Shown here: positions 3,006 through 23,243 of the stretch, one piece after another | Position numbering within the stretch: position 1 is the first letter of the stretch | How the letters are laid out: every line of letters begins with the position of its first letter | Origin: Methanocaldococcus jannaschii DSM 2661 | GTDB lineage: Archaea > AGJL01 > Methanococci > Methanococcales > Methanocaldococcaceae | NCBI RefSeq assembly: GCF_000091665.1 | Contig: NC_001732.1 | Coordinates: 22,128-54,127, forward strand | Direction of reading: 5' to 3' | Length of the DNA stretch: 32,000 nucleotides | The notes under the pieces: model-generated | The model's database searches: none | What the model was told of the DNA's origin: nothing | The model's input: the letters and a program-made list of their open reading frames with translations, nothing else | Made by a program: the position numbers and the translations under genes

Positions 3006-5489
3006 TCATAATACTTGTTTGATTTTTTGTATTATTGAGTAGTTTTTAATTATATTGAAATCAAGGGCATAAACATGTCCTCTTTTACATCCTGATATTA
3101 CAATATTGTCTTTGATGGACAAATCTAACACTGCACTTTCTGTTTTAAACTTCCATATTTCCTCACCAGTGTTAATATCAAGAGCATAAAGATAATTATC
3201 ACATCCTAATAATACAGCATCATTTTTAATAGACAAACCATTCACATCCCCATCTGTCTTAAATGCCCATAAATTCTCCCCTGCATTAATATCAAGAGCA
3301 TAGACACATTCTCGATTACATCCCAATATTACAATATCATCTTTAATAGATAATCTTAATACAGACCCTACTACCTTAAATCTTTCCATCTTCTCTCCTG
3401 TATTAATATCAAGAAGATAAACATAACCTCCCCTACATCCCAACAATACATTATCCTTTTTAATAGATAAACTCTTTACCTCTCCTTCTGCCTTAAACCT
3501 CCATAGTTCTCTACCAGTGTCAATATCAAGAGCGTAAAGATAATTATCACATCCAAATAGCAAAATGTCATTTTTTATGGATAAATTCCGTATGGATTTT
3601 CCTGATTTTGCTTTAAACTCCCATAACATATTTCCTGCATTAATATCAAGGGCAAGTATATATCCTTTTTTACATCCCAACACAACAATATCGTCTTTAA
3701 TAGATAAACTCCTTACATCATGCTTTATCTTAGACCTCCATATTTCTCTTCCTGTATTAATATCAAGAGCATAAGCATACCCTTCCTCCAATATTTTTCC
3801 ATTTTTCAACATGACAATGCTCTCAAATATATTTCCACATCCTAATACAACAATATCATCTTTAATAGACAAACCCCATACTGTATCCTCTGCCTTGAAT
3901 TCCCATAATTTCTTACCAGTTTTAATATCAATGGCATAAACATGTCCCGAAACACATCCTAATATTACAATATCACCTTTAATAGATAATAACCTTACAC
4001 CCCCCTCTGCCCTAAACTCCCACAATAACTCATCTACTCTTTTAATCCCTAAAATATCCAATATAAACTTACCAACATTAATTGCTAACTCATCATTTGA
4101 GTTATTTACCAATTCAATTAACTTATTCATATAATAATTAAATACAGCCCTATTTTCATTGAAAATGTTTTTAAATCTGCTGTATATTTCTTTATAGTTT
4201 GATGTGTTTAAATTATCTATCTCTTGTTTTAGGATTTTGTCAATTTTTTCTGGCCTCATGTCATCTACATTATCTCCTTTAAATTTTGTAATTGTTAATA
4301 CTTCTGTAAATCTTTCTTTGTATCGTATGTTAAATTCATCTTCAAACTCTACAACAATATCTATCGGTAGTTTTCCTTTAACTTTTGGATTTATAAAAAG
4401 GTTAATGACTTTTGTGTCTCTTCCTCTAATTTTTATCGGCTCTATGTCTTTAAATAAAATATCTTCTTCGTTTATTATTGAAATTTTCGATATTGTTATA
4501 TCTTTTAATGATTTGTTTGTTATTTGTATTGGTAGTTCATCCCATTCATTCAAATTAAGTGATTTTTTTAATAGGGTTAAATCTATCTTTACTATTTCTT
4601 TCATTATATTAGTTAGTTGTGGCCTAACTCTTTGTATTTTTGAATACAGGTTAGTATCAAGGGCATAGACACACCCCCACATGTCTGCCAATATAGTAAC
4701 ATCCCCACTTATCAATAAATCACTTACATGCCACTCTCCACCAAACTCTAATATTTTCTCACCTGTTTTAATATCAAGGACATAAAAATATTCACACCCA
4801 TATTCATCCTCACATCTCAATATTATTTTATCATCTTTGATAGATAACTCCCATACACACCACTCTGCTTCAAACTCCCACAATTTACCTCCTGTCCTAA
4901 CATCAATAGCATAAATGTATTTATCCCCATCACCCAATATAACAATATTATCTTTGAGAGAAAAACCCCACATACGCTCTCCTACCTTGGACTCCCATAT
5001 TTTATCCCCAGTCATAACATCAAGAACGCAAACATGCCCACCTCTATATTCCAACATTACAATATTATCTTTGATGAATAAACTATCTACATTGTGCTCT
5101 ACTTTATATTCCCATATTTTATTCCCTGTCTTAATATCAAGGGCAAAAAGATGGTTACTACACCCTAATATTATAATATTATCTTTGATATCTTTGATGG
5201 ACAAATCCCATACACTCCCCCCTGCCTTAAACTCCCATATTATGCTATCTTTTAAAATACATAACATAAACTTATCAATTTCAAGTGATAACTCATTATC
5301 ATCTAAATTTTTCATTAACTCAATTAATTTATCCACGTAATAATTAAATATATCTCTATTTTTGCTAAAAACATTTTTAAATTTGTCATATATTTCTTTA
5401 TAGTTTGATACGTTTAAATTATCTATCTCTTGTCTAATGTTTTCAACTCCATTGATTTTATTTTCTACAAAAACCATTCTCATCACCAA
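3006..5489 (-). CDS. Two-module PQQ-like (BamB-like) beta-propeller repeat protein
   Basis: 827-aa ORF. The track start is TTG; the ATG at 5477 follows GGTGAT plus 4 nt and is more likely. It has 13 units of a ~40-aa blade ('Y-A-L-D-I-x-T-G-x-x-h-W-x-F-K ... L-S-I-K-D-x-I-V-h-L-G-C') in blocks of 5 (aa ~75-285) and 8 (aa ~480-815). Each block follows a homologous helical leader ('EIDNLN[VT]SNYKEIY..FKN.F..NR..FNYY..KLIEL'). The blocks are separated by a ~120-aa non-repeat domain. I saw no N-terminal signal peptide. Confidence 0.85.
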   Translation of the reverse strand: MVMRMVFVENKINGVENIRQEIDNLNVSNYKEIYDKFKNVFSKNRDIFNYYVDKLIELMKNLDDNELSLEIDKFMLCILKDSIIWEFKAGGSVWDLSIKDIKDNIIILGCSNHLFALDIKTGNKIWEYKVEHNVDSLFIKDNIVMLEYRGGHVCVLDVMTGDKIWESKVGERMWGFSLKDNIVILGDGDKYIYAIDVRTGGKLWEFEAEWCVWELSIKDDKIILRCEDEYGCEYFYVLDIKTGEKILEFGGEWHVSDLLISGDVTILADMWGCVYALDTNLYSKIQRVRPQLTNIMKEIVKIDLTLLKKSLNLNEWDELPIQITNKSLKDITISKISIINEEDILFKDIEPIKIRGRDTKVINLFINPKVKGKLPIDIVVEFEDEFNIRYKERFTEVLTITKFKGDNVDDMRPEKIDKILKQEIDNLNTSNYKEIYSRFKNIFNENRAVFNYYMNKLIELVNNSNDELAINVGKFILDILGIKRVDELLWEFRAEGGVRLLSIKGDIVILGCVSGHVYAIDIKTGKKLWEFKAEDTVWGLSIKDDIVVLGCGNIFESIVMLKNGKILEEGYAYALDINTGREIWRSKIKHDVRSLSIKDDIVVLGCKKGYILALDINAGNMLWEFKAKSGKSIRNLSIKNDILLFGCDNYLYALDIDTGRELWRFKAEGEVKSLSIKKDNVLLGCRGGYVYLLDINTGEKMERFKVVGSVLRLSIKDDIVILGCNRECVYALDINAGENLWAFKTDGDVNGLSIKNDAVLLGCDNYLYALDINTGEEIWKFKTESAVLDLSIKDNIVISGCKRGHVYALDFNIIKNYSIIQKIKQVL
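4131..4231. repeat. Internal direct repeat, copy A (leader of propeller module 2)
   Basis: The ~100-nt stretch 'ataataattaaatacagccctattttcattgaaaatgtttttaaatctgctgtatatttctttatagtttgatgtgtttaaattatctatctcttgtttta' aligns base-for-base, with scattered substitutions, to 5337-5437. Confidence 0.85.
5337..5437. repeat. Internal direct repeat, copy B (leader of propeller module 1)
   Basis: 'cgtaataattaaatatatctctatttttgctaaaaacatttttaaatttgtcatatatttctttatagtttgatacgtttaaattatctatctcttgtcta' is the nucleotide-level duplicate of 4131-4231, about 1.2 kb away within the same ORF. Confidence 0.85.
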
Positions 5490-5763
5490 AAAAACTTTTA
5501 TTTATTTCAAAATTTTTCTAATAACACACCATTCAATTATCGAAATTAGATTAATAATTCCATTACAAGTGTCTCTAACACTTCACCATATTTTTATTAT
5601 AATTTCATTATACCTTAATAGCATATTAAATTCAATAACCCAACTTTAATTTTGCACTTATTAAGATTTGTAACATTATCAATGCCCCCTACCATAATTC
5701 CATAATGAGTTTTTGGAGGTTTCACTAAAAGAAGTAATCTACAGCATTCTTTAATTATATGTC

Positions 5764-5941: not shown

Positions 5942-6721
5942 ATGGTTGTAATTTCAATTGCAAATCAAAAAGGGGGTGTTGGAAAAACAACAATAGCATT
6001 AAACCTATCATTTACACTTGCAGAAAAGGGGTATGATACTTTAGTAATCGATTTAGACCCACAATTCAACTTATCCTTTGGAATTTTGGGAATGAAATTA
6101 TTAGATTATGCTGATAAAAATATTGGAATACTATTATCAAAAAATTCTGTTAAGAAGAAAGAAATTGAAGAGTCTATTATAAAAATTAATGATAAGTTAG
6201 ATTTAATCCCCTCCCACTTGCAGCTTTCTGCTGTAGAAAAAATGTTAGTTAATGCTTATGCAAGGGAAATGAAGTTGAAAAATATCATTAACCAAATCAA
6301 AGAAAATTATGACTACATAATAATTGATAATGCCCCATCATTAGGACTATTTTTAATAAATTCATTAGTGGCATCTGATTATATTATCATCCCATGTGAG
6401 CCAAGTTATTTTAGTATTGCAGGAGTTCAACTAATGTTAGATACTGTTGAGGAAATAAAAGAATCAAACTTGAATCCAAAACTTAAAGTTTTAGGGTTTA
6501 TTTTCAACAAGTACTCTAAACAATCAAAAATTCCACAAAAGAGGTTAGAACAGTTAAAACAACTCTATCCTAACATTCCAGTAATTGGAGTAATTCCAAG
6601 AACTATTACTGTTGAAAAGGCAGAACGTGAGGGAAAACCTGTGTTTAAATTTGATGCTAATAATCCTGCAAGTGTTGCATTCTCAGAACTTGCTGAGTGG
6701 GTGATAGAAAATGTCAAATGA
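5942..6721 (+). CDS. parA: ParA/Soj-family partition ATPase
   Basis: 259 aa with a GGTGAG RBS. It has the deviant Walker A 'NQKGGVGKTT' (aa 8-17), 'LVIDLDPQ', and the Walker B region 'YDYIIIDNAPS'. The length and layout are those of small (type Ib-like) ParA/Soj proteins. Confidence 0.95.
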   Translation: MVVISIANQKGGVGKTTIALNLSFTLAEKGYDTLVIDLDPQFNLSFGILGMKLLDYADKNIGILLSKNSVKKKEIEESIIKINDKLDLIPSHLQLSAVEKMLVNAYAREMKLKNIINQIKENYDYIIIDNAPSLGLFLINSLVASDYIIIPCEPSYFSIAGVQLMLDTVEEIKESNLNPKLKVLGFIFNKYSKQSKIPQKRLEQLKQLYPNIPVIGVIPRTITVEKAEREGKPVFKFDANNPASVAFSELAEWVIENVK

Positions 6722-7043
6722 TGATTTGAATGCATTAAAAAAATTAAAAGAAATTAGTTCTGGGACAGTAAAACAGATAACTTCACTACCAAAAAAAGAA
6801 CCACAAGAAGAAAAAATGTCAAAAACTCTAAGGATAAAAAACACTACTCATGAAAAAATTATTGAAATGTATGGGAAAAAAGTTGGTAGCCAAGGAGAAG
6901 TTGTAGATAAGGGTGTTGCAGTCCTCTATGCATTATGGAAAATACTTCCAGAAGAACAATTTAAAAGGGTTGTTAAACTGGCTGAAGAAGATAGGTTTGA
7001 AGAATTTGCTGATAGGTTGGGTATTGAAATAAAAGAAGAATAA
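6711..7043 (+). CDS. Small partner of ParA; putative ribbon-helix-helix centromere-binding/adaptor protein
   Basis: ATG 6711 overlaps the parA stop (6719-6721), and a GGTGAT RBS lies within the parA 3' end. The 110-aa protein has a Lys/Glu-rich N-terminal tail. This is followed by 'KTLRIKNTTHEKIIEMYGKKVGSQGEVVDKGVAVLYALW', which fits a strand-helix-helix pattern. The function is inferred from position only. Confidence 0.6.
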   Translation: MSNDDLNALKKLKEISSGTVKQITSLPKKEPQEEKMSKTLRIKNTTHEKIIEMYGKKVGSQGEVVDKGVAVLYALWKILPEEQFKRVVKLAEEDRFEEFADRLGIEIKEE

Positions 7044-7047
7044 ATAA

Positions 7048-8079
7048 TTATTGCATTGCATTTATAATCTCCTTTATAGCATGCCATTCGATAATAGATG
7101 TCGGTTTGATTATTCCATTTATCACATCATAAAACAATATTTCATTCTCAATTAGGAATTTTAAATATTTCATTTCCTCTTTTTTAACTTCCTTATCATA
7201 GGAGATTTTTATCTTGTCCTTGAATTTAGATAAAACATTATAAAGCCCCTCCTCATCTAAATCGGTTGTATCTATAAGGTATTTTAGCCCATCTTTTTCA
7301 ACATTAATCCACTGTTTTATAGTTTGTTCAACAGATAAACCTAACTTCTTATTATTTATCAGTTGAGAAATCTCATAAGGCAATGATAAATAGTCTAAAG
7401 CATAATTAATCTCTTCTTCGCTAAAACCTTCTTCTTTTAAAATATTCCTTATAGTTCCTTTTCTTAACCAGTCAATTAAATAATACTCAGAGGCATTTTT
7501 TAATGTTGAATTCCTATAGATTTCATCAATAAATAATGTATCAGAAGTTAAGCATATAACATGGCATAAATGTTCCATTTTAGTTAGAGAGACGAATAAG
7601 TTAAACAATTCGTTTAATAATGACTTTCCTCCATTAAAATAAATATTCTTCAACTTTTGTAACTCATCAATTATTAAAACTGGCTTTTTTCCTTCTTCAA
7701 CAACTGCGTTAATACTCTCATTTATCTTAGCAAAGACATCATTTAGGCATAAGTTATTAAAGTCAAAATTCTCTTCAATTCCAAACTTACAAACTCCCAA
7801 GTTAAGTTCTAACTTATTTAATAGATATTTTTTATCCGACTTTTCAAAAAATACTCTTAAAAACTCATCCCTTGTTGGTGTTGCATATTTTCTTAAATTA
7901 TAATAGAAAAACACTATATTACTGTTTTCTAACTCCTTAATAACTCTCCTCATTACCGTAGATTTACCAGATGATTTAGGACCATAAACAAAAAGGATAG
8001 AATTAGGTTCTAACTGACAGTAGGTTTTTAGATAGTTGAGTTCTTTCTCTCTATCATAGAATTTCATAATTTCACCCAA
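7048..8079 (-). CDS. P-loop NTPase of the 'archaeal ATPase' type
   Basis: 343-aa ORF. The track start is TTG; the ATG at 8067 follows GGGTGA plus 4 nt. It has Walker A 'VYGPKSSGKST' and Walker B 'PVLIIDELQKL'. The N-terminal 'FYDREKELNYL' lead-in and overall size resemble the ATPase family expanded in Methanococcales. Confidence 0.8.
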   Translation of the reverse strand: MGEIMKFYDREKELNYLKTYCQLEPNSILFVYGPKSSGKSTVMRRVIKELENSNIVFFYYNLRKYATPTRDEFLRVFFEKSDKKYLLNKLELNLGVCKFGIEENFDFNNLCLNDVFAKINESINAVVEEGKKPVLIIDELQKLKNIYFNGGKSLLNELFNLFVSLTKMEHLCHVICLTSDTLFIDEIYRNSTLKNASEYYLIDWLRKGTIRNILKEEGFSEEEINYALDYLSLPYEISQLINNKKLGLSVEQTIKQWINVEKDGLKYLIDTTDLDEEGLYNVLSKFKDKIKISYDKEVKKEEMKYLKFLIENEILFYDVINGIIKPTSIIEWHAIKEIINAMQ

Positions 8080-9403: not shown

Positions 9404-12400
9404 TTAGGTAATCCGCAGCAATCCAGGTTTTGGCTCGTATATTACCCCCAACTTTTTCAACTTTTCTAATGCTTTATAGAATACTTCTTCAACAAACTTC
9501 AATTTTTCAACAATTAGTTCATATAATTCCATTTCTAATATTTCCCCTCCATTTTCTTCAATTTTCTTTTCAATAACTTTTTCACACTTTTCAACACTGT
9601 TAGAGTTAATATTTTGTTTTATAATCTCATATAGCGTTTTAAACTCTTTGTTAAGTTCTTTTATTTCAACTACTGCATTTTCCCCCAGTTTTTTTACTCC
9701 TCTAATTACACAATTAAATATTGCTCTTATCAATCTTCTAACTTCATCCAAGGTTAGAGTGAATCCACATTCTTCTTTTATAACCTCTATTAATTCTCTA
9801 ATTTTGAATTTTTGTCTTTCAATGGCAAAATCTCTAACTTTTATTAACACTTTTGCAACTAATGACCTTAACCCTAACTTTCTCCTATCTAATCTCTCAT
9901 CATCTTCTCCTACTACAATATTCCATACTGCTCTTATAATCCTTTGAATCTTACCCCATTTTGATGGAGGGCATAAGAATGTTTTTAGAATTAGCTCTTC
10001 TATAATTCTTGCCAATGTTGAGAGTTTATCCTTATGTTCCTCTAACAATTTCAAATCAATATGGTAAATTTTCTTTGTTTTTCTATCTTCATTTTCATTA
10101 ATTTCTTTAACAATTTTCTTATACTCGTTAATTTCTTCTAAGCATTTTTTAATAGTATTTTCATCTAAGTTCGATTTTTTATCATCATCTTTTCCTTTAT
10201 TCAACATTAGGTTATACACTTCTATAACTTCTGGAATATTATAAACATCTTTTAACACGTTTATACTCCTGTTAATCCTTTTTGAGTGTTTTTTTATTAA
10301 TTGTGGAGTGTATTCATCCCTACAATCTTTAAATTTCTTATAATTATTATATTCCAAGGCATTTTTGATTTCATTCACTCCATATTCTTTAAATGCAATA
10401 ATTATATGTTTTGCACTAACTTTTTCAAGATATTCGAGATAATTATATTTTAAGAACTTATCCAGCTTACTTTCTTTTAACTCTTTTATTGTTTTAATTG
10501 CAAACTCATAGCCAGTAGTTTTTTCTAAATACTCTTTTAGTAATTTATAATCTCTTGTAATATGGGCCTCTAATAGACTATTATAAATGTGTGCTATTTC
10601 ATCTTCATCTAAAACCCAATCCTTCTTTTCCTCATCATAATATATTGCATTTTGAATTTGAGAAATCAACACTTTCTTATAATTTTTATCCAATTCTTTT
10701 AAAACTTCAATATCCGTTTCTAAATACTCTTTTAATAGTTTATAATTTTCCTTAAACATTTCAATCATTGCATTATAATCAATAATCATTGGCTCTTCTT
10801 CTCTTTCTTTAAAAGGTGCTGTGACAATTAACTCTCCCCCACCATTCCTACATCTGGCAATAAACTGTCTAATGGTGGTAGCACTCTTACAATACAATGC
10901 CCATACCAAATCAACATGATTTTTAATATTAACTCCCTCAGAAATGACTCTTGTGGCTAAAATTAACCCCTCTTCTGGTACTTTTTCTTCATTAATAATC
11001 ATTTTACTTGCCTTGTCAATTCCAACAGTCTCTCTTGTTATAACGTAAATTGGCTTGTTAAAACCATACAATTCTAAAGTATATTTTATATTCTCAATCA
11101 TTTTCTTATTATCAACTAAAACTACAGCATTTTTTATCCATCCCTGTCTAAACATTAGTAGGATGTATTCACAAAACTCTCCAATAATATTTTTTGCAAT
11201 ATGGATAGAACATCTTTCAAATAATTTTTTCTCATCTTTAAATTCCACTTCTATAACTGGATAGTTATTCAAATTAATTAACTCTGGAGTTGCAGTTAGT
11301 AAGACACAACCTCCAGCCCTGTCTATACACTTTTTTACCCCTGTTATTGCCCTTTTTCTAAACTCTTTTTGGATTACTAAATCATGTGCTTCATCTATTG
11401 CCAATAGAATATCCTCTTCATTAGCAACTTGAATTTTCTCCCCTTTATAAGTGTCATAACATAAATCATTAAGCATATTTTCAACTTGGTCGTAGGTCCC
11501 AATGGTCAAATAATGAATAGTATTCTTATCCAATTTTTTCCCATCTTCATAATACATTGGAACTACTACTCCATCAGCGTGTAATCCTGCCCCTACTTGT
11601 AAAACTTGTATTTTATATGGGAATGCCACTGCTATAGCATGTTTTTTAAATACCTCTTTAATTTCTCTTGTATTTCTTGTTAGAGTATAAGTTTTCCCCC
11701 TTCCAGTGTCTGCTTTAAGAAATACTGGAACTCCTTGTTCAATAGATAATTGGTATGCTTTTATTATAGCCTCTTTTGGTAAGTATCCTTCTGCTTCTAT
11801 CTTTATTGTTTCTCTATCGAGTAGTTCATTCATTATCTCTCTAACAGTCCTATAAGTGGATGGCTTTGGATTAATATTGTGTAATTTTAAAAATTCTATT
11901 ATTTTATCCCTAAATTCTTTAATCATCCATAATCCTGCTAATGCAATAAATCTCATATTTGGATCGTGGAAATCTACCATTACTGCATTATATCCCTCAT
12001 TAATGTAAATAGAACAGTCAGGATTTTTCCCATCATCAAAGAATAAACTCCATAAGTCTAATCTGGTTCCATTTTTACCATATTTATAATCAATTCCCAA
12101 GTAGGAGAGGAGTTTTTCAATCCATCTTTTACCCAATTTTTTAGTTAATTTATCTTGTATAGTATATAACCATTTGTAAATTCTTTTATTTATATCTTGC
12201 AATATAGTTTTATTAAGATTTGGTTTTTTTATTAATCTATTAATTGTTGTGGTAATGTTGTTTAATCCTCGCTTATTGTATAATTCTTCTCTTTTTTCAT
12301 TGAATAATACTTCAAATTCTTTATAATTTTCAATAATTCCAAACTTCTCATACAATATTATTGGAGTTAACAATTTTTCAATATCTTCTTCATCTGTCAA

Positions 12401-13222
12401 CTGGGCTATTGTAACACATGGTCTTGGACTACCATATTTTTCCTTATAATTGTAAGTTCCTACCAGCCTATCAACTCTTGCCAAATCATACATTGCAATA
12501 TCTGCCCCTAAATCTTCAGCAATCATTCTTAGTAGTATTAATTCTTCTTCTAAAATAGGTCTTTCAGGATATAATATGAATCTTAATCCTCCCCCAGTAA
12601 ATGCCACTTTATGTGGAAGTATATCCTTCTCTACGAATTTTGATAAATATTTAATCAATTTTTCCATAATTTCTTCTTCTGTAGGCATTTTGTTTGTCTT
12701 CCACTCTTCAACGTCAAAATCAAATGCAATATAACTCCAAGCAGTGGCAGCTCCCGCATCCCCTCTTTTTTCCTTTCTTGGGGCAATTCCGACATAAACC
12801 CCATCTAATCTTCTTTTCTTTTGTTTTTTAATATACTCATACTGTTTTTTTATTAATTTTATGATTTCTTCAGTTTTTTCTAAAATATTATCAACGTGTA
12901 AATCTGAAATATCTATGAAAAATTGTTTTTTACCCTTAAATTTTCCTAAAAATCTAATTTCTAAATACTTAAACTGTTTTACTAATTTTTTCAAAATTTT
13001 TTCTAAATGAGTTTCTCCAAGATATACTGAAAATTCTTCTTTATGTTTGACAATCAAAAATAGCAACTGTGCAATGTGTAATTTTAAATCAGATTCTAAA
13101 ATATCATCTGAGATATTGTAAATTCCACTAACATTTATTTGATACTTATCAAAAATAGCTTTTACAGTTTGATCATCCCAATACCGCAAACTTTTTATAC
13201 TATTAGATAGTATATTATTCAT
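9404..13222 (-). CDS. Replication protein: N-terminal archaeo-eukaryotic primase (prim-pol-like) domain fused to an SF2 DEAH helicase, with a C-terminal winged-helix-like tail
   Basis: 1272 aa with an AGGTGA RBS 7 nt before ATG 13222. AEP motifs: 'YIAFDFDVEEW' (DxD, aa ~165-174), 'VAFTGGGLRFILY' (sGxG, aa ~206-218) and 'RVDRLVGTYNYK' (R-h-x-G-T-x-N-x-K, aa ~249-260). Helicase motifs: I 'KADTGRGKTYT' (~504-513), II 'LLAIDEAHDL' (~606-615), III 'LLTATP', V 'ATRVISEGVNI' and VI 'QFIARCRNGGG'. The C-terminus 'ALEKLKKLGVIYEPKPGLLRIT' looks like a wHTH wing. Confidence 0.8.
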   Translation of the reverse strand: MNNILSNSIKSLRYWDDQTVKAIFDKYQINVSGIYNISDDILESDLKLHIAQLLFLIVKHKEEFSVYLGETHLEKILKKLVKQFKYLEIRFLGKFKGKKQFFIDISDLHVDNILEKTEEIIKLIKKQYEYIKKQKKRRLDGVYVGIAPRKEKRGDAGAATAWSYIAFDFDVEEWKTNKMPTEEEIMEKLIKYLSKFVEKDILPHKVAFTGGGLRFILYPERPILEEELILLRMIAEDLGADIAMYDLARVDRLVGTYNYKEKYGSPRPCVTIAQLTDEEDIEKLLTPIILYEKFGIIENYKEFEVLFNEKREELYNKRGLNNITTTINRLIKKPNLNKTILQDINKRIYKWLYTIQDKLTKKLGKRWIEKLLSYLGIDYKYGKNGTRLDLWSLFFDDGKNPDCSIYINEGYNAVMVDFHDPNMRFIALAGLWMIKEFRDKIIEFLKLHNINPKPSTYRTVREIMNELLDRETIKIEAEGYLPKEAIIKAYQLSIEQGVPVFLKADTGRGKTYTLTRNTREIKEVFKKHAIAVAFPYKIQVLQVGAGLHADGVVVPMYYEDGKKLDKNTIHYLTIGTYDQVENMLNDLCYDTYKGEKIQVANEEDILLAIDEAHDLVIQKEFRKRAITGVKKCIDRAGGCVLLTATPELINLNNYPVIEVEFKDEKKLFERCSIHIAKNIIGEFCEYILLMFRQGWIKNAVVLVDNKKMIENIKYTLELYGFNKPIYVITRETVGIDKASKMIINEEKVPEEGLILATRVISEGVNIKNHVDLVWALYCKSATTIRQFIARCRNGGGELIVTAPFKEREEEPMIIDYNAMIEMFKENYKLLKEYLETDIEVLKELDKNYKKVLISQIQNAIYYDEEKKDWVLDEDEIAHIYNSLLEAHITRDYKLLKEYLEKTTGYEFAIKTIKELKESKLDKFLKYNYLEYLEKVSAKHIIIAFKEYGVNEIKNALEYNNYKKFKDCRDEYTPQLIKKHSKRINRSINVLKDVYNIPEVIEVYNLMLNKGKDDDKKSNLDENTIKKCLEEINEYKKIVKEINENEDRKTKKIYHIDLKLLEEHKDKLSTLARIIEELILKTFLCPPSKWGKIQRIIRAVWNIVVGEDDERLDRRKLGLRSLVAKVLIKVRDFAIERQKFKIRELIEVIKEECGFTLTLDEVRRLIRAIFNCVIRGVKKLGENAVVEIKELNKEFKTLYEIIKQNINSNSVEKCEKVIEKKIEENGGEILEMELYELIVEKLKFVEEVFYKALEKLKKLGVIYEPKPGLLRIT

Positions 13223-14329: not shown

Positions 14330-14410
14330 CTAATAACCTACAAAGTGGGAGTTCAAATTTGCTAAACTTTAAGCTCCCTTAATGGAAACTCGAAACTAAA
14401 ATAAGTAAAA

Positions 14411-14505
14411 CCATAATACAATAATACAATCATTCAATAATATCATAAAATCATAATTTAGTAATGCAATAATCCAATAACTCCACAATAACATAATAAA
14501 ATAAC
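14411..14505. repeat. Array of degenerate ~8-bp units (CAATAATA)
   Basis: Units start at 14412, 14419, 14427, 14435, 14444 and 14452: 'CATAATA|CAATAATA|CAATCATT|CAATAATAT|CATAAAAT|CATAATTT'. The array continues with 'gcaataat ccaataac .. cacaataa cataataa'. Confidence 0.7.
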
Positions 14506-16005: not shown

Positions 16006-16225
16006 TTTTTCTTATTTTTCTCCCCCTCCCTCTCGGGCTCTCCCCTCCCCCTCTTTTTAATTTTTCTATTTTAAAATTTAAATTAATATAATTATTAATT
16101 TGACAATTTGACAAGTTTTTTTATTTTTTATTATTGTTTTATTTTGATTGTATTTTTTGTTTTTGTTTGTTTTTATCCTATTTTTTTGCTTGTTTTGTTT
16201 TCTTTTGTTTTTTGTTTGATTGTAT
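16006..16225. repeat. Left copy of a ~200-bp inverted repeat (G/C-rich mirror core plus T-rich arm)
   Basis: The core CTCCCCCTCCCTCTCGGGCTCTCCCCTCCCCCTC (16020-16053) is the exact reverse complement of 23195-23228 (34/34). The inward-running T-rich part ('taatttgacaagttttt..attgttttattttgattgtattttttgttt..gttttgttt..ttgtttgatt') aligns with the reverse complement of 23045-23194, with small indels. Confidence 0.9.
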
Positions 16226-16575
16226 TTTGCATCGGTATTTTGTATTTTCTTTAGTAGGAGTTTGTATTATGTTTTTATTGTATTGTTGGATTATGTTGTC
16301 ATGTTATTATTGTATTATTTAGTTATTGTATTATAATTTGTATTTTGTATTTCCTTAATGGAGAGAGGTTATTTATTTTATTGTTTTATTGTATTATTTT
16401 ATTATGTTATTAATTAATAGTTGTATTCTTTTATTATGCAATTATGTTATTCTTATGGTGTTGTTGTGTTTGAATTTCTTTTAGTGGAAATTTGAATTAT
16501 GTTATTGTTGTATTATGTTATTGCAGTGTTATTTAATTGTTGTATTATTTTACTTTGTAATTATGTTGTTCTCGT
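16221..16575. repeat. Long array of degenerate ~8-bp units in the T-rich orientation (TATTATTG)
   Basis: 'GTATTATG|TTTTTATT|GTATTGTT|GGATTATG|TTGTCATG|TTATTATT|GTATTATT|TAGTTATT|GTATTATA' runs from 16264 onward. The array is interrupted by the dyad box 'tttccttaatggagagagg' (16350-16368) and the 22-nt box (16469-16490). Confidence 0.7.
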
Positions 16576-16697
16576 GAGTTTGTTTTTTTAGGTTTTAATA
16601 GAGTGTGTTCAAAAATAGGTTGTAAGATATGGTTAGAATAGTCTTTGCTAAATTAAAAATAATTAGGTGGTAGAAAGATGAGGGTTTATTTTTCTGA

Positions 16698-18014
16698 TTA
16701 GTCTAAGGTAGTTTGCCAACTTTTTATAGCTCCAATTTCTTCTTTACATGATTCTTTAAATTTTCTTGCCATTCTTTTATCTTTAATCACTTTAATTCTC
16801 CATTTTCTTGATACTTTCTTAAGATATCCTTTTAAATTTCTATTACTAAATAACTTTAATGTTTCTTCAATTCGTTTACTGACTATGTTTTTATAATCCT
16901 TATAGAAATAATCAATTATGGAGATACTTGTGCTTCTGTATAATGCATCCATTATAGTCCCTACAGTAAACTCTTTTTCAACAAGTGAGTCCATATTTAT
17001 AGAAATATTGAGAGCATCAATTAACTTAAGAACATTTGCATTTAGAGGTTTATTTTCTGGTAATATTACAATATCTTTATCTACTCTTAATAATTTATTT
17101 TCTTTGTCTATTATACATTTCTTCTTACAAAGTTTTTGTATAATGTTTTCAATTTCTTTAAAATCATCTTCTTTTAAACTTTCTAATGAGTATTCACCTT
17201 TTGGGAGAATAATCTTTTTACTAAATACCATCCCCACTTCTGGCTCATCGTGTCCAGATAATGCCATAGATACGAGTTCTCTAAGTATAAGAATTTTAAA
17301 TAAACTTCCCTCTTTGTCATTCTCAGCATCGCAAATCAGTAAATCATAGGAAGGTTTCTCTTTTTCTCCCCAAGTTATTGGAAATATTTTATTTAGCTTT
17401 TGATTTTCATAATTACCACGTTCGAGTGAAATTTCTCCAGGTGAAACTTTTAAAATTTGAATGTCTTCTGTATCTTTTAAAACAGGATGTGTAGTTAAGT
17501 CATCAAATGACATGTAACTTACATCAGACTTATATAATCTAGGATTTTTTGTGACAGAAATGTATCCTTTGTTTATAATAACATGTAGATTCTCTTTTAA
17601 TTTCAGATATTTTTCTAATTGCTCTTTTTTGATACTTTTAGATTTGCATTCAAAAATAAGAACATGTGTATCATTATCATTAACAAGTATAACATCTGGA
17701 GTTATTTCTGCAGGATTGCCATTTTTAGTATAATATATTCCATCAAGAACGATTCTTACACCAAGAGTACTACCTTTTTTGGGTCGATATCCCAAGTCAT
17801 ATAGATGATGGGGAAAATATTTTATAGGATAAACAAGATTTAATATTATGTTGATTAGTTTAGTATGTTGAGATTGATAATCTTCAAGATTTTCTGAAAT
17901 TAAAGCGGTTATATATTCAATAATATCTTTATATGAAGGTTCTGTTGAGGTTTTCTTCTTTCCATATTTCTCGAAATAAAAATCTAAAGTTCTGTTATCT
18001 AATTCTTTCCCCAT
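16698..18014 (-). CDS. Hypothetical protein with an N-terminal PD-(D/E)xK nuclease-like motif
   Basis: 438 aa. A GAGGTGG RBS lies 6 nt before ATG 18014, inside the 3' end of the upstream gene (20-nt overlap). 'ITPDVILVNDNDTHVLIFECKSKSIKK' (aa ~104-130) gives P-D...E-x-K with the spacing and hydrophobic strands typical of restriction-endonuclease-fold nucleases. I recognised nothing in the remaining ~300 aa. Confidence 0.8.
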   Translation of the reverse strand: MGKELDNRTLDFYFEKYGKKKTSTEPSYKDIIEYITALISENLEDYQSQHTKLINIILNLVYPIKYFPHHLYDLGYRPKKGSTLGVRIVLDGIYYTKNGNPAEITPDVILVNDNDTHVLIFECKSKSIKKEQLEKYLKLKENLHVIINKGYISVTKNPRLYKSDVSYMSFDDLTTHPVLKDTEDIQILKVSPGEISLERGNYENQKLNKIFPITWGEKEKPSYDLLICDAENDKEGSLFKILILRELVSMALSGHDEPEVGMVFSKKIILPKGEYSLESLKEDDFKEIENIIQKLCKKKCIIDKENKLLRVDKDIVILPENKPLNANVLKLIDALNISINMDSLVEKEFTVGTIMDALYRSTSISIIDYFYKDYKNIVSKRIEETLKLFSNRNLKGYLKKVSRKWRIKVIKDKRMARKFKESCKEEIGAIKSWQTTLD

Positions 18015-19221
18015 ACTTTTCCACCTCTAAAATTGTCTCAGAATCATACGTCTGTTGGATATTAGATAGTAATCTTAGAGCAGTGTTTCCACATGAGCCT
18101 TTAGGTAAGTATAGTCTCATCCACCATGGAGTAACTTCTAATGAAAACCTATCTCCATTGTGCAAATCCACTCCTGAAATGTAATACATATCTTCTTCAA
18201 CTTGTTTGGCTAACCCCCAAATTTTAAAAGGTTCTTTTACTGATATTAGTCCCTCTACAAAGTTTTTTAAATCTTCAATTTCTTTTTCAAATTCGTAAAT
18301 TAGTGGTATTCTATCGCCCCAATCACTTGAAGTATAGTCAATTAGAGAATCTTCAATAATTTCAATTTTTTGTTCGTAATTTTCTATAGTTTTATCTACA
18401 ATTTCATTGTGTTTTTCTATTGATGTTCCTTTAACTGTAAATTTCCCCCAATAATAAATATCCTCCAAGACAAATTTATCTTTATCATCTTCTGAAACTA
18501 TCTTTATTTTTGATTTTGTAATTCTCATTAAGTGTTTAAATTCATGTAATTTTTTGATAGTGTTAAATATCTTTTTTATTTTTGTATCATTTAACAATTG
18601 GAAATCCTTAATTAGTTTTTCAAATTCTTGAATCTCATCTGAAGATAATGATTGGATAATTTTAATTAACTCATAGACACTTTCCCCATTACTACTAATT
18701 GATAATTTATTAGCCCTCTCTTCAACATCATTATCTAAGTAAAATGGAGTTTCATCATGTTTAGTTGATAACCCCCTAACATAATCTGCTTTTTTTAGGA
18801 ATTTTTCTAAATCACCTGTGGGCATCCATAGGTTATCTAATCTTGATTTTATTGGACTTATTAATTTATTAAAATATTTATCAGACTCTTCTGATTTTTG
18901 TAATGTGTATAATTTCCAAAATCTTGGGTTTTTAGCATCTATGAAAAAGTAACCTTCATCACCAATACGTAACATGTAGAACTCATATTCATCTAATGGT
19001 TTTATTTTTCCAGTTTTTATTATTCTTGATAATTTTTTGGGATGGATATTCGACTCTAAAATATATGTTTTTACAACATTTTGTTCGGGTTCTAATTTCG
19101 TATCGTCTAAAATGTCTTTATAAGACCTTTCCATGTTTCTTTCTAACCATTCGTATAACTGAGGACGATTTGTTATGTCGGGTATAGCACTTCCAACAAA
19201 TATTGTGTCCATAATTATCAC
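17995..19221 (-). CDS. Hypothetical protein (no recognisable motif), first gene of a two-gene operon
   Basis: 408-aa ORF. The track start is GTG 19221; the ATG at 19212 is preceded by GGAGTGTGAT. Codon and amino-acid usage look like the neighbouring real genes. It is translationally coupled to the 438-aa gene. Confidence 0.75.
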   Translation of the reverse strand: MIIMDTIFVGSAIPDITNRPQLYEWLERNMERSYKDILDDTKLEPEQNVVKTYILESNIHPKKLSRIIKTGKIKPLDEYEFYMLRIGDEGYFFIDAKNPRFWKLYTLQKSEESDKYFNKLISPIKSRLDNLWMPTGDLEKFLKKADYVRGLSTKHDETPFYLDNDVEERANKLSISSNGESVYELIKIIQSLSSDEIQEFEKLIKDFQLLNDTKIKKIFNTIKKLHEFKHLMRITKSKIKIVSEDDKDKFVLEDIYYWGKFTVKGTSIEKHNEIVDKTIENYEQKIEIIEDSLIDYTSSDWGDRIPLIYEFEKEIEDLKNFVEGLISVKEPFKIWGLAKQVEEDMYYISGVDLHNGDRFSLEVTPWWMRLYLPKGSCGNTALRLLSNIQQTYDSETILEVEKYGERIR

Positions 19222-19539
19222 ACTCCTTAATAACAGTAAAAACAGTGTAAGGTATTAAAAAACCGTCCTAATAAATACCAGCTTATTTATTTTTTGAATA
19301 ATTTGTTTTTAATGAATAAAAAATTTTCTTTCTCACTGGTGTGTCCAATATTAGAGTTGTGAGTATTATATACTCATAGCAACAAAAGATGGAAATCAGA
19401 GTCGTGGTTTATTAAACATAGGATAAAATCTTGAAAATATTCGATAATGTCATTAAGAATCTACTTTACTCTTAGATTTGAATTCAATAAATGATAGTGT
19501 TAATGTTATTGTTTTTAAATTTGGGTCTAATAATACTAT

Positions 19540-19637: not shown

Positions 19638-19680
19638 ACACCTCAAAGTATGAACTCTAGTCCGCAATTTTGAATTTTCT

Positions 19681-19790
19681 TTAATTATGTTATTATTGCA
19701 TTGTTGAATTATGTTGTTATATTATTATTAAATTATTTATTTATTGTATTATTGTCTTGTAGGCTATTATAAACTTGTATTTTGTACTTC
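19681..19790. repeat. Array of degenerate ~8-bp units (T-rich orientation), ending in a TTCC-N8-GGAA dyad box
   Basis: 'ATTATGTT|ATTATTGC|ATTGTTGA|ATTATGTT|GTTATATT|ATTATTAA|ATTATTTA|TTTATTGT|ATTATTGT' is followed by 'cttccttattaatggaaatc' (19788-19807). Confidence 0.65.
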
Positions 19791-20100: not shown

Positions 20101-20988
20101 TTATTCTTTGTTTTCGCATTTTTTTTGAATGACTTCTAAGATTTCTTTTTCTAATTTTAGTATTTCATTTATTGTTGTTTTAAAGGTATCTATTTCAGAC
20201 TTTAATGTATTAAATTTAGTATCAAACTTTTCATCAATCTTATTTACTTCTTCGGATAAAATTTCAATTTTATTCCATATTGGAGTTGTTACATCTCTTG
20301 TCGCAACACCGAGTATACCTCTAATGAATTGTTTTGTTACCAACTCTTCCTTATTTATTGGGAAATCATAGATTCTTACAAAACCAGATGCTGATTGCTT
20401 ATAGGATATTATAAAAGCGTGTGCATACTGTACATTATCTATGGCTACAGCTAATGGATTAATTGAAACTCCAGAAACTCCATGAGGTGGTGTCTTATTA
20501 TGAGGTTTTGTACCAACCCATAGGGGAAGACTTAACACTATACCTGATATTGTCAAACTAATACGTTTATTAGTAGTAATATAATTTGGATTCATGCTAA
20601 GCACGTTTTGCATAACTGGCGGATTCAATTTCTGATTATCATCTGCTCTCCCAACATATTGGGGACTATCACCCATCCAAACAATAATTTGACCTGCATT
20701 AAGAAATCTCCTTAGTAGGCTGTTTGATGTAGGATTATCCGGATTATCTAAAACTAAATCAGGAACAACATCTTGAGCAAATACTACCACATATTCTTTA
20801 TTTGTATCTTTAGAACCCTCCCCTAACACCCTCTGCAAACTGGGAGCGTCAATAACTTCAAAATCATATTTTTCTAGTTCTTTAGATATATGCTTAGCCA
20901 CATTATGAGGTATCCAGCTGTAAGGATAACGTTCATCATAGTATACATACAACTTCTTTTCAGTTAGTCCTGGTGTCATATGTTTCAC
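20101..20988 (-). CDS. Hypothetical partner protein of the OLD-family nuclease (globular N-domain plus C-terminal coiled coil)
   Basis: 295-aa track ORF starting at GTG 20988. The ATG at 20979 is more likely (292 aa): GGGTGA (20990-20985), which contains the OLD stop codon, sits 5 nt upstream. The C-terminal ~60 aa ('[49 protein letters not shown]') are heptad-like. The N-domain segment '[12 protein letters not shown]...[19 protein letters not shown]' is reminiscent of flavodoxin/GATase1-like folds, but only weakly. Confidence 0.75.
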
Positions 20989-22877
20989 CCTAGTTCACTA
21001 TCTATATTTAAAATAATCTTCTTGATATCTTCTGGAACTTCAGTAAGTCTTGATACTATCTTTTCTGCGATTTTACATTTCAAATATCGTTCAATCGATC
21101 TACCACTGTCCCACCCTAATGTAATAATAAACTCTTCGTCTACATTTTTTAAAACTGTGAATAATTTTCCACTAAGTTTGTGCAATAAATCTTTTTCATT
21201 TTTACCTTCTTCATTCTTACAAGCACCAAAAATTTTGATTTCATCTATAATAGATTTAATTTCTTCGTCTTGGAGAACTTCTTCATATTTATCTTTGAGA
21301 CATTCTCTTAGTAATTCATCAAGTGCGAGAATGAAATCTTCAGGTTTTATGTATCCTAGTATATCTTTTTTCTCTATTATAAATACTTCAAAATTCTCAC
21401 GTAAGCCCATATCCTTAGCTATTTTAACATTCTTTAATCCCTCTTCATCATTATCAGCAATTAAAAACACTTTAATCCCGTAATCCTCCTTAAATACTTT
21501 TATCATCTCTTTTAGACTTCTTTGAGCATAGGGTATTATAATATAGCTAAATTTAGGAAGATTTTTAAGTTGTTCTATGAGCAAATCTATGTAACCTTGC
21601 AGTATTATCCGATCGCTGTTTCCTTCGACAAGTATTGCGACATCTGAGAAAAGGAAATAACCTGGTACAACACCCAGATCTCTAGCAAGTGATTCACTAA
21701 GCCTGCTACCACGGAATGGATAAAAGATTCTTGTAGCTAGAAGCTCTGTTGGGTATCCTTCAAAGTTAATTTTAATTGAATCTTTTCGAACACCTATAAC
21801 AAACCTCTTATCTTTAAGAGTGGCAATGAAATCTGGAGAATGTGTAACTATGATTAACTGAACATTTAAATTATTAGCTAAGTCTTCCAACACCCTTGCC
21901 AAACGTCTTATATATGCAGGATGTAAGTGAATTTCTGGCTCTTCTATCAAAAATATATGATGTTTTCCTTTAGATATTATTGAAGCTAATATTCCATCAA
22001 TAATCTGATCTCCACTTCCAAAAAGTTCATAATTTAATGACATACCTTCATATGATTTTGTTAAAATTTCAGTTCTATCAGGTTGTTCATACGTGTCTAC
22101 ACTTCCTTTTATCTCTCTAAGACAATCATATAACATTCTAAGTCGTGCAAAATCTTTTATCGTGTTTTTAATGACATTTATTAATTCAGAAGATACCATA
22201 GGATGGGCAAAAAGGCCTTTAATTGGGATATTTACCATTTTATAGATCTCAGGGAATGTATTCACATAGCATATCTTATTTTTTATAAGATCTATGAATA
22301 TATTAAAGACATCTTTATTTTTTATAGTACCGCTTTCCACAATTACACATGGCACTAAAGAATCTCCAGTCTTTGACTCGATATTATGCCCTGTCACCTT
22401 ACTGTGGATTTCTTTCATTTTCTTTAAAGCTTCTTTTGCAATCTTGGATGTCTCTGATACGTAACCAAATATTATCACATTTTGGAGCTTCCATATAATT
22501 TGATTATTATTACTCTCAATGGATACTTCAATATATGCTTTCTTAACATTACTTTCTAAACCACATACCTCCCTCAATTTGTCGCCTTCTCCTTCATCAA
22601 AGTTTAGCCATACAGCAAGTTTTATAGGGTAATTCTGGTAAGTGTAAAACCATAATCTTCTAATTTGATCTTTTAAGTTTTGTTCAGTTATGGTAGTGAT
22701 ATTAAGATTTTTCTCAGTAGAATTAGTGTCGAGATTTTCAAATATGATCCTTATAACATTAAGTATCGATGTTTTTCCAGAACTATTTTTGCCTATAAGC
22801 ACTGTAACTTTCCCAAATTCTACAGTTAGATCATAAATGCTTCTAAAGTTTTCTATTTTAACCTGTTCTATTTTCAT
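20985..22877 (-). CDS. OLD-family nuclease: ABC-type ATPase fused to a C-terminal TOPRIM domain
   Basis: 630 aa. The N-terminal '[32 protein letters not shown]' contains Walker A. 'ELFGSGDQ' is signature-like, '[15 protein letters not shown]' is Walker B/D-loop, and '[10 protein letters not shown]' is the H-loop. TOPRIM motifs are '[14 protein letters not shown]' (Glu) and '[12 protein letters not shown]' (DxD). Confidence 0.88.
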
Positions 22878-23044: not shown

Positions 23045-23243
23045 AAATAAACATAAAAAATCAAACAAAAAAACAAAACAAAATAAAAATAAGTACAAAC
23101 AAAAAATACAATCAAAAATAAAACAACAATAAAATAAAAACTTGTCAAAATAAGTAAATTAATAATTTTTAAACTAAAAAATAAAAAATTAAAAGAGGGG
23201 GAGGGGAGAGCCCGAGAGGGAGGGGGAGGAAACAGAAAGAAAA
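23045..23243. repeat. Right copy of the ~200-bp inverted repeat
   Basis: The core GAGGGGGAGGGGAGAGCCCGAGAGGGAGGGGGAG (23195-23228) is at the outer end. The A-rich arm runs inward to ~23045 and ends in 'ccatttccactaaaa'. This copy is shorter than the left one and has no long octamer array. Confidence 0.9.

Follow-up and report, generated by a model that had tools for sequence, protein, structure and literature searches.

The genes MJECL33 and MJECL32, here called genes A and B, are carried by the 58,407-bp large extrachromosomal element of Methanocaldococcus jannaschii DSM 2661. Both lie within the 32,000-nt stretch of contig NC_001732.1 that was analysed as a whole and is referred to as the window. 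The two genes form a translationally coupled pair that is conserved side by side in Archaea and Bacteria and that is exchanged, together with its 5' region, as a unit. Protein B is a predicted PD-(D/E)xK nuclease, and protein A is probably a scaffold of repeats with the fold of the TATA-binding protein (TBP). We postulate that the pair constitutes an autonomous, horizontally mobile, nuclease-based module defending its carrier against incoming DNA, and we give this reading about an even chance.

Gene structure and identity of the pair

The basic elements of the gene pair are as follows.

16687..19331, minus strand: mobile cassette of putative promoter region, gene A and gene B; the sole DNA common to the window and the Methanotorris igneus chromosome
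19213..19331, minus strand: conserved 5' region of the cassette, with a TATA-like element TTTTTTAATA at 19253-19262 and AAGGAG at 19223-19228
17995..19212, minus strand: gene A (MJECL33), 405 aa with the ATG start (408 aa in the annotation, which uses GTG 19221); Pfam PF25924
16698..18014, minus strand: gene B (MJECL32), 438 aa; Pfam PF27326
17995..18014, minus strand: overlap of A and B, 20 nt, translational coupling
18021..18027, minus strand: GAGGTGG, the Shine-Dalgarno sequence of gene B, within gene A, 6 nt 5' of the ATG at 18014

The initial annotation of this DNA had described two coupled genes that overlap by 20 nt, with GAGGTGG inside the first, and these open reading frames (ORFs) and coordinates stand as claimed. 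It had also given the first protein 408 residues. The ORF from GTG 19221 does exist, but ATG 19212, which yields 405 residues, is the more likely start: AAGGAG lies 10 nt before this ATG and just 1 nt before the GTG, and the ATG is also where A starts in RefSeq and where its orthologue starts in M. igneus. In the alignment with M. igneus the 5' region is kept and the DNA further upstream is not, and the region is a predicted promoter.

Protein A belongs to the 90% identity cluster of UniProt Q60290/AAC37102 (408 aa, GTG start) and equals the 405-aa form of RefSeq, while protein B is identical to UniProt Q60289/AAC37101. PF25924 is named after MJECL33 and PF27326 after MJECL32, and the family entries state no function. 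The PF25924 domain is present in the precomputed annotation of 16 of 16 A homologues, and B homologues carry PF27326. Sequence scans of A and B against Pfam (in a copy that lacks PF25924 and PF27326), NCBIfam, PADLOC and the PDB gave nothing usable; A matches one PHROG of no stated function, phrog_22469, at 1e-47. The literature searched does not mention MJECL32 or MJECL33, and TK0593, the A homologue of Thermococcus kodakarensis, appears there only in pull-down tables.

Co-conservation and distribution of the pair

An exhaustive profile search of 1.84 billion representatives recovered 811 clusters of the A family at 50% identity, scattered patchily over both domains. The members listed are nearly all ~350-440 aa long, and the top 150 include no fusions. 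With more than 400 codons each in DNA of 28% GC and with these 811 homologue clusters, the two ORFs are not products of chance. When one genome per species was scanned with a single pattern, 50 loci were recovered. The archaeal loci come from Methanocaldococcus, Methanoregula, Methanoperedens, Halobacteria, Thermoplasmatales, Altiarchaeales, Thaumarchaeota and Bathyarchaeia; the bacterial loci include many Actinomycetota as well as Dehalococcoidia, Planctomycetota and others. Plasmid searches added one haloarchaeal plasmid and plasmids of Bacillus, Lysinibacillus and Metabacillus. In PLSDB, tblastn gave no match for B, the bacterial and haloarchaeal homologues of which are too divergent for a single-sequence search; the A query also missed the record of the M. 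jannaschii element itself.

Hidden Markov model scans of all ORFs of the loci place B directly next to A in ~50 of 58 cases, in both Archaea and Bacteria, which bears out the proposal that the pair is co-conserved elsewhere. Where B is not adjacent, the locus lies at a contig end, the copy is degraded or, in a few Acidimicrobiia, gene A stands alone. Gene A comes first in archaea, Bacillota and several further phyla. The reverse order, B before A, characterises all 20 loci of a group dominated by Actinomycetota, in most of which the genes overlap by 4 nt. That adjacency survives this swap of gene order is strong evidence for functional coupling of A and B. The pairwise divergences of the two proteins are correlated (Mantel r = 0.94, reached by 0 of 999 permutations), and B evolves faster than A, with a mean distance of 0.77 vs 0.68. 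An identical 20-nt overlap is found at loci L001, L003, L007 and L062, which represent T. kodakarensis, Thermococcus sp. 18S1 and both M. igneus copies.

Solo A genes without an adjacent B were observed in Acidimicrobiia at 6025-7062 of loci L043 and L051 and at 5965-7020 of L053; at L053 the opposite strand additionally encodes a complete B-A pair. The islands that harbour solo A genes also carry SNF2 helicase, large methylase, OLD-like and PIN genes. No clear solo B was seen among the loci. A viral origin of the pair was considered and rejected, as it occurs in 1 of 2.9 million viral contigs and in no phage record.

Protein B is a predicted nuclease

Protein B is composed of a predicted nuclease domain, a lineage-restricted insertion and a C-terminal helical domain.

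17505..17882, minus strand: predicted PD-(D/E)xK nuclease domain, B residues ~45-170, from motif conservation with weak profile and fold matches
17643..17699, minus strand: predicted catalytic motif P106-D107 ... H117 ... E122-C123-K124
17607..17621, minus strand: Q132-x-x-x-Y136 motif, RecB/Cas4-like
16980..17252, minus strand: insertion, B residues ~255-345, only in the Methanococcales and Thermococcales versions
16719..16979, minus strand: C-terminal helical domain, B residues ~346-432, ending in a beta-hairpin (W405-R-I-K motif)

The residues of the predicted catalytic motif and of the Q132-x-x-x-Y136 motif are invariant among nine B homologues. D107, K124, Q132 and Y136 are also retained in at least 90% of 34 diverse homologues that are 12-39% identical to B of the window, and the expectation that the PD-(D/E)xK residues are conserved thus proved correct. 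A minor clade carries ExT instead of ExK, with a basic insertion nearby. The QxxxY element resembles motif IV of the RecB family and marks a RecB/Cas4-like subgroup of nucleases.

In the AlphaFold model of B, the nuclease domain has a predicted local distance difference test (pLDDT) score below 50, and the predicted order of helix, three strands and helix fits a PD-(D/E)xK core. As the model fails in this domain, its Foldseek matches, namely XisH, SduA (8ps5), Card1 (6xl1) and cap-snatching endonucleases at E 0.07-0.3, are weak and serve as hints only. Among single members of the family, two homologues matched the HSDR_N_2 profile at 3e-4 and one matched YhcG_C at 5e-3, both of them families of the PDDEXK clan. 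The program hhalign placed TPDVILV...LIFECKS of B in register with RPDLVVF...IAIFEFKS of the HsdR encoded in the window, at a probability of 2.5%. A profile search of the PDB with the 34 homologues returned noise only, and B had no significant match to the Cas4, RecB or AddB families in Pfam, NCBIfam or the PDB. These indications are weak, yet they agree in direction, and we interpret the N-terminus of B as a predicted PD-(D/E)xK nuclease.

The remainder of the protein is modular. Outside Methanococcales and Thermococcales the core of B spans ~290-340 aa, and the versions of these two groups carry an additional insertion of ~90 residues in the 34-homologue alignment. The insertion (~255-345) is modelled confidently by AlphaFold. 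Within the model of B, a run of 83 residues can be superposed on the N-terminal fold of ribosomal L10/P0 with a root-mean-square deviation of ~3 Å; judged from the confidently modelled part, this run probably falls within the insertion. The C-terminal helical domain with its terminal hairpin is common to all versions of B, gives weak matches to MksE/MukE-type proteins and may be winged-helix-like.

Protein A probably has a TBP-like fold

The initial annotation had recognised no motif at all in protein A. Here, a confidently modelled multi-domain fold, probably TBP-like, and a set of near-invariant polar residues lead to a different picture. The protein can be divided into three regions.

18652..19074, minus strand: A residues 47-187, TBP-like repeats 1 and 2, two units of strand-helix-4 strands-helix; K48, E53, D92, R97, D126, W129
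18529..18642, minus strand: A residues 191-228, helical hairpin insertion (helices 191-203 and 210-228), missing in most homologues
17998..18525, minus strand: A residues 230-405, C-terminal half, with a further TBP-like unit at 304-388

The AlphaFold2 model of A has a pLDDT of 84 and a predicted TM-score of 0.85. Foldseek matched it to RnlA (6y2s) at E 4.5e-3 with a probability of 0.90, where the TM-scores are 0.13-0.16 at a root-mean-square deviation of 14 Å, and to a phage RNaseLS-like protein with a probability of 0.97; the TM-scores of the RnlA-type matches are low throughout (0.13-0.17). Further matches are to archaeal, eukaryotic and giant-virus TBPs. On the basis of this model, A is probably a scaffold of TBP-like fold repeats. 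No sequence similarity of A to TBPs was found, and a test by hhalign for internal sequence repeats in A was negative.

About 15 polar residues of A are near-invariant in 158 sequences, among them E53, D92, R97, D126, Y279, E287, D349, H351, C374, N376 and R380. The C-terminal half contains the motifs GKFTxKG, PFRxWG, D349-L-H351-x-G and C374-G-N376-T..R380. HEPN and RnlA Pfam models matched 0 of 85 A homologues, and no methyltransferase, glycosylase, kinase or other known DNA-modifying fold was detected in A.

TK0593 (45.8 kDa; L001 10001-11164) co-purified with His-tagged Cdc6, Fen1, RPA2 and GAN in Ni-affinity pull-downs, at low MASCOT scores of 73-153, and TK0592, the B homologue, is not among the proteins of these pull-downs (PMC2962436, PMC3152336). 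Protein A is thus expressed in T. kodakarensis. The co-purification may reflect an association with DNA or the replisome, or TK0593 may merely be a sticky protein or common contaminant; its recovery with four unrelated baits suggests that it is sticky or abundant.

Transfer of the cassette and its carriers

The window and the M. igneus chromosome share 2,649 bp at 92% identity within unrelated flanks. This shared DNA spans from ~120 nt upstream of A to 11 nt past the B stop. As only 16687-19331 is shared and the flanks are unrelated, the putative promoter region, A and B have been exchanged as a unit. The alignments with M. igneus reveal no terminal repeats at the cassette ends. The initial annotation had placed the pair in a segment bounded by inverted repeats, but the arms (16016-16213 vs 23046-23232) are only 72-73% complementary. 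They consist of low-complexity T-run/A-run DNA and are for that reason not accepted as a boundary; the real mobile unit is the cassette itself. A transposon or other element bounded by terminal repeats was likewise rejected, since the cassette ends lack repeats and the inverted repeat is of low complexity.

Integrated elements that encode either the pT26-2-type core or an integrase and PCNA harbour the cassette in T. kodakarensis (where the element is TKV3), in T. guaymasensis and in M. igneus. In the pT26-2-type elements, the pair sits between the conserved core module and PCNA, replication or integrase genes, a position that corresponds to the variable, not the core, region of the pT26-2 plasmid family (PMC6972569). 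Further carriers are chromosomal sites without element genes nearby. A second, divergent pair was observed in M. igneus (L007 10001-12377; CP002737, ~1.43 Mb). Its A protein is ~55% identical to A of the window, the 20-nt overlap is kept, and the pair adjoins genes for McrB, a RecD/UvrD-like helicase, a TPR protein and an HFX_2341-like protein.

No conserved third gene emerged when 270 flanking proteins from ~50 loci were scanned against Pfam and PADLOC. Two Bacillaceae plasmids, B. cereus pBFR_2 (L010 4869-5606) and Metabacillus pB218 (L064 5409-6125), encode a ~240-aa protein, annotated as a PemK/MazF-family toxin, immediately upstream of A-B. The outer flanks of the two plasmids differ, and their versions of this protein are 46% identical; it may represent a lineage-specific third component.

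Genomic neighbourhoods

In the window, the pair is accompanied by an OLD operon, an EVE protein, two PIN modules and a type I restriction-modification (RM) system with HsdR and HsdS. The neighbours listed in the initial annotation, an OLD nuclease, an EVE protein, toxin-antitoxin (TA) modules and a type I RM system, are thereby confirmed, as an OLD-type ATPase/TOPRIM protein, EVE, PIN toxins and HsdR/HsdS. The pair of B. cereus lies beside Hachiman HamAB and a MazF-like gene. Other loci feature HmaA/DrmD-type SNF2 helicases (matched by four flanking proteins), type I RM, NmeDI-like and UvrD/PDDEXK genes, OLD, PIN and large methylase genes, and integrases and transposases. These genes are sightings at individual loci rather than a measure of enrichment over the genome background. 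Methyltransferases are found in only few of the 270 neighbouring proteins and are unlinked to the pair.

Comparison with known systems

As a system, the A-B pair matches nothing in PADLOC v2. The two proteins of the window gave 0 matches in PADLOC-DB v2.0.0, including its candidate PDC families, at E values up to 0.1, and 119 diverse members (85 A and 34 B) gave only four singleton matches, at E >7e-4. The initial annotation had called the pair unmatched. This holds for named defence systems but not for the proteins as such, which were already known as hypothetical proteins and gave their names to two uncharacterised Pfam families. Three outcomes named beforehand as speaking against a new system, namely a housekeeping or already described identity of either protein, a lack of co-conservation, and nuclease residues that vary among homologues, were not found.

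The best structural match of A is RnlA/LsoA, the RNase LS of the anti-phage TA systems RnlAB/LsoAB, and RnlA acts in the context of a conflict system. The NTD and NRD of RnlA are TBP-like domains (PMC8266594). Protein A differs in that it has neither the HEPN ribonuclease domain nor a Pfam or PADLOC match to RnlA. Moreover, the pair lacks an RnlB-like antitoxin, and its nuclease is a separate PD-(D/E)xK protein. In its model, A repeats units of strand, helix, four strands and helix that are probably those of the TBP superfamily, but its invariant acidic, His and Cys residues are atypical of the DNA-binding saddle of TBP.

A PD-(D/E)xK effector within a small cassette in defence islands is also a feature of Shedu (SduA), Hachiman (HamA with HamB) and Card1/Can2. 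The A-B cassette, however, has no helicase as in Hachiman, no CARF domain as in Card1 and no DUF4263 as in Shedu, and protein A has no counterpart in any of the three. B has the same motif set and spacing as RecB/Cas4-type nucleases (D...ExK and QxxxY) and the N-terminal domain of HsdR, with matches below significance, but it lacks a helicase or ATPase domain. An Fe-S cysteine cluster is typical of Cas4 and AddB, and no such cluster was seen in the alignment of 34 B homologues. Restriction-modification systems differ from the pair in that no cognate DNA methyltransferase is encoded with it and only A and B are conserved. We regard A-B as a small conflict cassette that is centred on a nuclease and unusual in the architecture of its partner protein, and as one of many uncharacterised candidate systems.

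Possible functions of the pair

In the defence model that we favour at about even chances, the carrier protected would be a plasmid, an integrated element or the host. B would act as the effector, its N-terminal PD-(D/E)xK DNase with the Q-x-x-x-Y motif being joined to a C-terminal winged-helix-like domain. Translational coupling would provide A and B in approximately equal amounts, and the two proteins would form a complex. Within it, A, with its TBP-like repeats and conserved polar pocket, would bind nucleic acid or a cue derived from the invader, and would thereby target or license DNA cleavage by B. Part of the evidence weighs against such a role. The initial annotation's idea of defence-type surroundings is true insofar as the pairs are often found on mobile elements or near defence genes; the neighbourhoods are nevertheless heterogeneous, many of the neighbours are ordinary metabolic or housekeeping genes, and a defence function is read from context. 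This heterogeneity leaves room for a role in addiction or in DNA metabolism. In a bolder version, which we consider rather doubtful, the pair would define a new defence family of Archaea and Bacteria, combining a multi-TBP-fold sensor or licensing subunit that has its own pocket with a RecB-like DNase. It would be the first TBP-fold immune sensor outside RnlA and a plasmid-borne weapon between mobile elements in hyperthermophiles.

A different and, in our estimate, unlikely function is that of a TA-like module by which plasmids and integrated elements secure addiction or stabilisation, with the nuclease B as the toxin and A as an inhibitor that would act on it stoichiometrically. If the element were lost, B would be released and the cell killed or arrested, and an anti-virus effect would be secondary, via abortive infection. 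Two tightly coupled genes in either order are compatible with a TA layout, and the pair shows a strong association with plasmids and integrated elements. PIN, MazF and MazE-like genes frequently adjoin it, A is structurally nearest to the N-terminal domains of the RnlA toxin of RnlAB, and the weak fold match of B to XisH points to a small nuclease-like protein that is encoded together with a partner, XisI. Yet A is large (~370-400 aa), diverges more slowly than B and carries enzyme-like invariant residues, all of which is unlike small labile antitoxins; no helix-turn-helix autoregulator domain was detected in it, and it also occurs without B.

Decidedly unlikely, as we see it, is an accessory role in the DNA metabolism of mobile elements, that is in recombination, repair or the handling of replication intermediates, where A would be a TBP-fold DNA-binding factor recruiting the nuclease B to structures of the element. 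The co-purification of TK0593 with Cdc6, Fen1, RPA2 and the GINS-associated nuclease GAN fits such a role, but the scores are low and the four baits unrelated. Similarly, the pair lies beside PCNA, replication and integrase genes in pT26-2-type elements, but it does so in the variable part of this family, it is found at chromosomal sites without element genes as well, and it is nearly missing from viruses. QxxxY nucleases include enzymes of recombination and repair, with RecB, AddB, Cas4 and lambda Exo among them; no recombinase or single-stranded DNA-binding partner is conserved with the pair. We judge it very unlikely that the pair works like an RM system, with A as an unconventional modifier, either adding a mark to self DNA or taking one away, and B cleaving according to that mark. 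The 15 near-invariant polar residues of A do look like an active site, B combines predicted nuclease and DNA-binding-like domains, and RM genes are frequently found beside the pair. In A, however, no similarity to a known DNA-modifying fold was detected, and to our knowledge there is no catalytic precedent for a TBP-like fold. The solo A genes are hard to fit with an RM-like system only if A is harmless alone.

Other features of the window

Outside the cassette, a 26-nt palindrome, GTGAATTGACTTTGAAGTCAATTCAC, occurs in intergenic DNA at 5763, 8395, 13983, 14557, 14908, 15898 and 19540. With up to 3 mismatches there are four sites, against a chance expectation of 0; at laxer identity the number rises to seven. 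One of the copies precedes gene A by ~330 nt and is not part of the cassette that the window has in common with M. igneus. The palindrome could be an operator, a repeat resembling a miniature inverted-repeat transposable element (MITE) or a recombination site. AT-rich arrays with an 8-nt period (ATTATGTT/ATTATTGT...) at 14405-14500, 16242-16588 and 19660-19776 flank the cassette and other gene blocks. Together with the T-run/A-run tracts at 16016-16213 and 23046-23232, they account for the weak inverted repeats reported earlier, and they are possibly iteron-like or binding sites for a nucleoid protein.

The OLD-family protein belongs to a two-gene operon at 20101-22877 on the minus strand. It consists of 630 aa with AAA_15 and OLD TOPRIM domains, overlaps a 295-aa protein by 4 nt and finds its best PADLOC matches in AriA, GajA and Old. 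The 295-aa partner has no family match and is not GajB-like; the operon may be an undescribed OLD-associated system. A 1272-aa protein encoded at 9404-13222 on the minus strand contains only a central ResIII/DEAD helicase core and has no PADLOC match; it could serve in the replication of the element or in defence. At 3006-5489 on the minus strand lies the gene for an 827-aa PQQ/beta-propeller repeat protein, with ~10 copies of a 117-nt unit at 60-75% identity. The region 5942-8079 encodes a ParA-type ATPase (259 aa) and a 110-aa downstream partner, which are probably a plasmid partition module, and an archaeal ATPase_2/MJ1010-like protein adjoins them. No tRNA genes or Rfam RNAs were found in the window.

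Significance

Few archaeal defence or conflict systems have been tested by experiment, and the plasmids of hyperthermophiles are poorly understood. The cassette described here, ~2.6 kb in length, moves as a unit between elements of Methanocaldococcus, Methanotorris and Thermococcus. Its spread, which also includes haloarchaea, Thaumarchaeota, Bacillaceae plasmids and Actinomycetota, offers tractable hosts in both domains, namely T. kodakarensis with TK0592/TK0593 and B. subtilis or B. cereus. Should the defence function hold true, TBP-fold repeats would be a new partner architecture for nuclease-based immunity, and the role of the unexplained N-terminal domains in RnlA-type toxins may become clearer. 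Should the pair instead serve addiction or DNA processing, two genes of the first archaeon to be sequenced, 'hypothetical' for 30 years, would gain a role.

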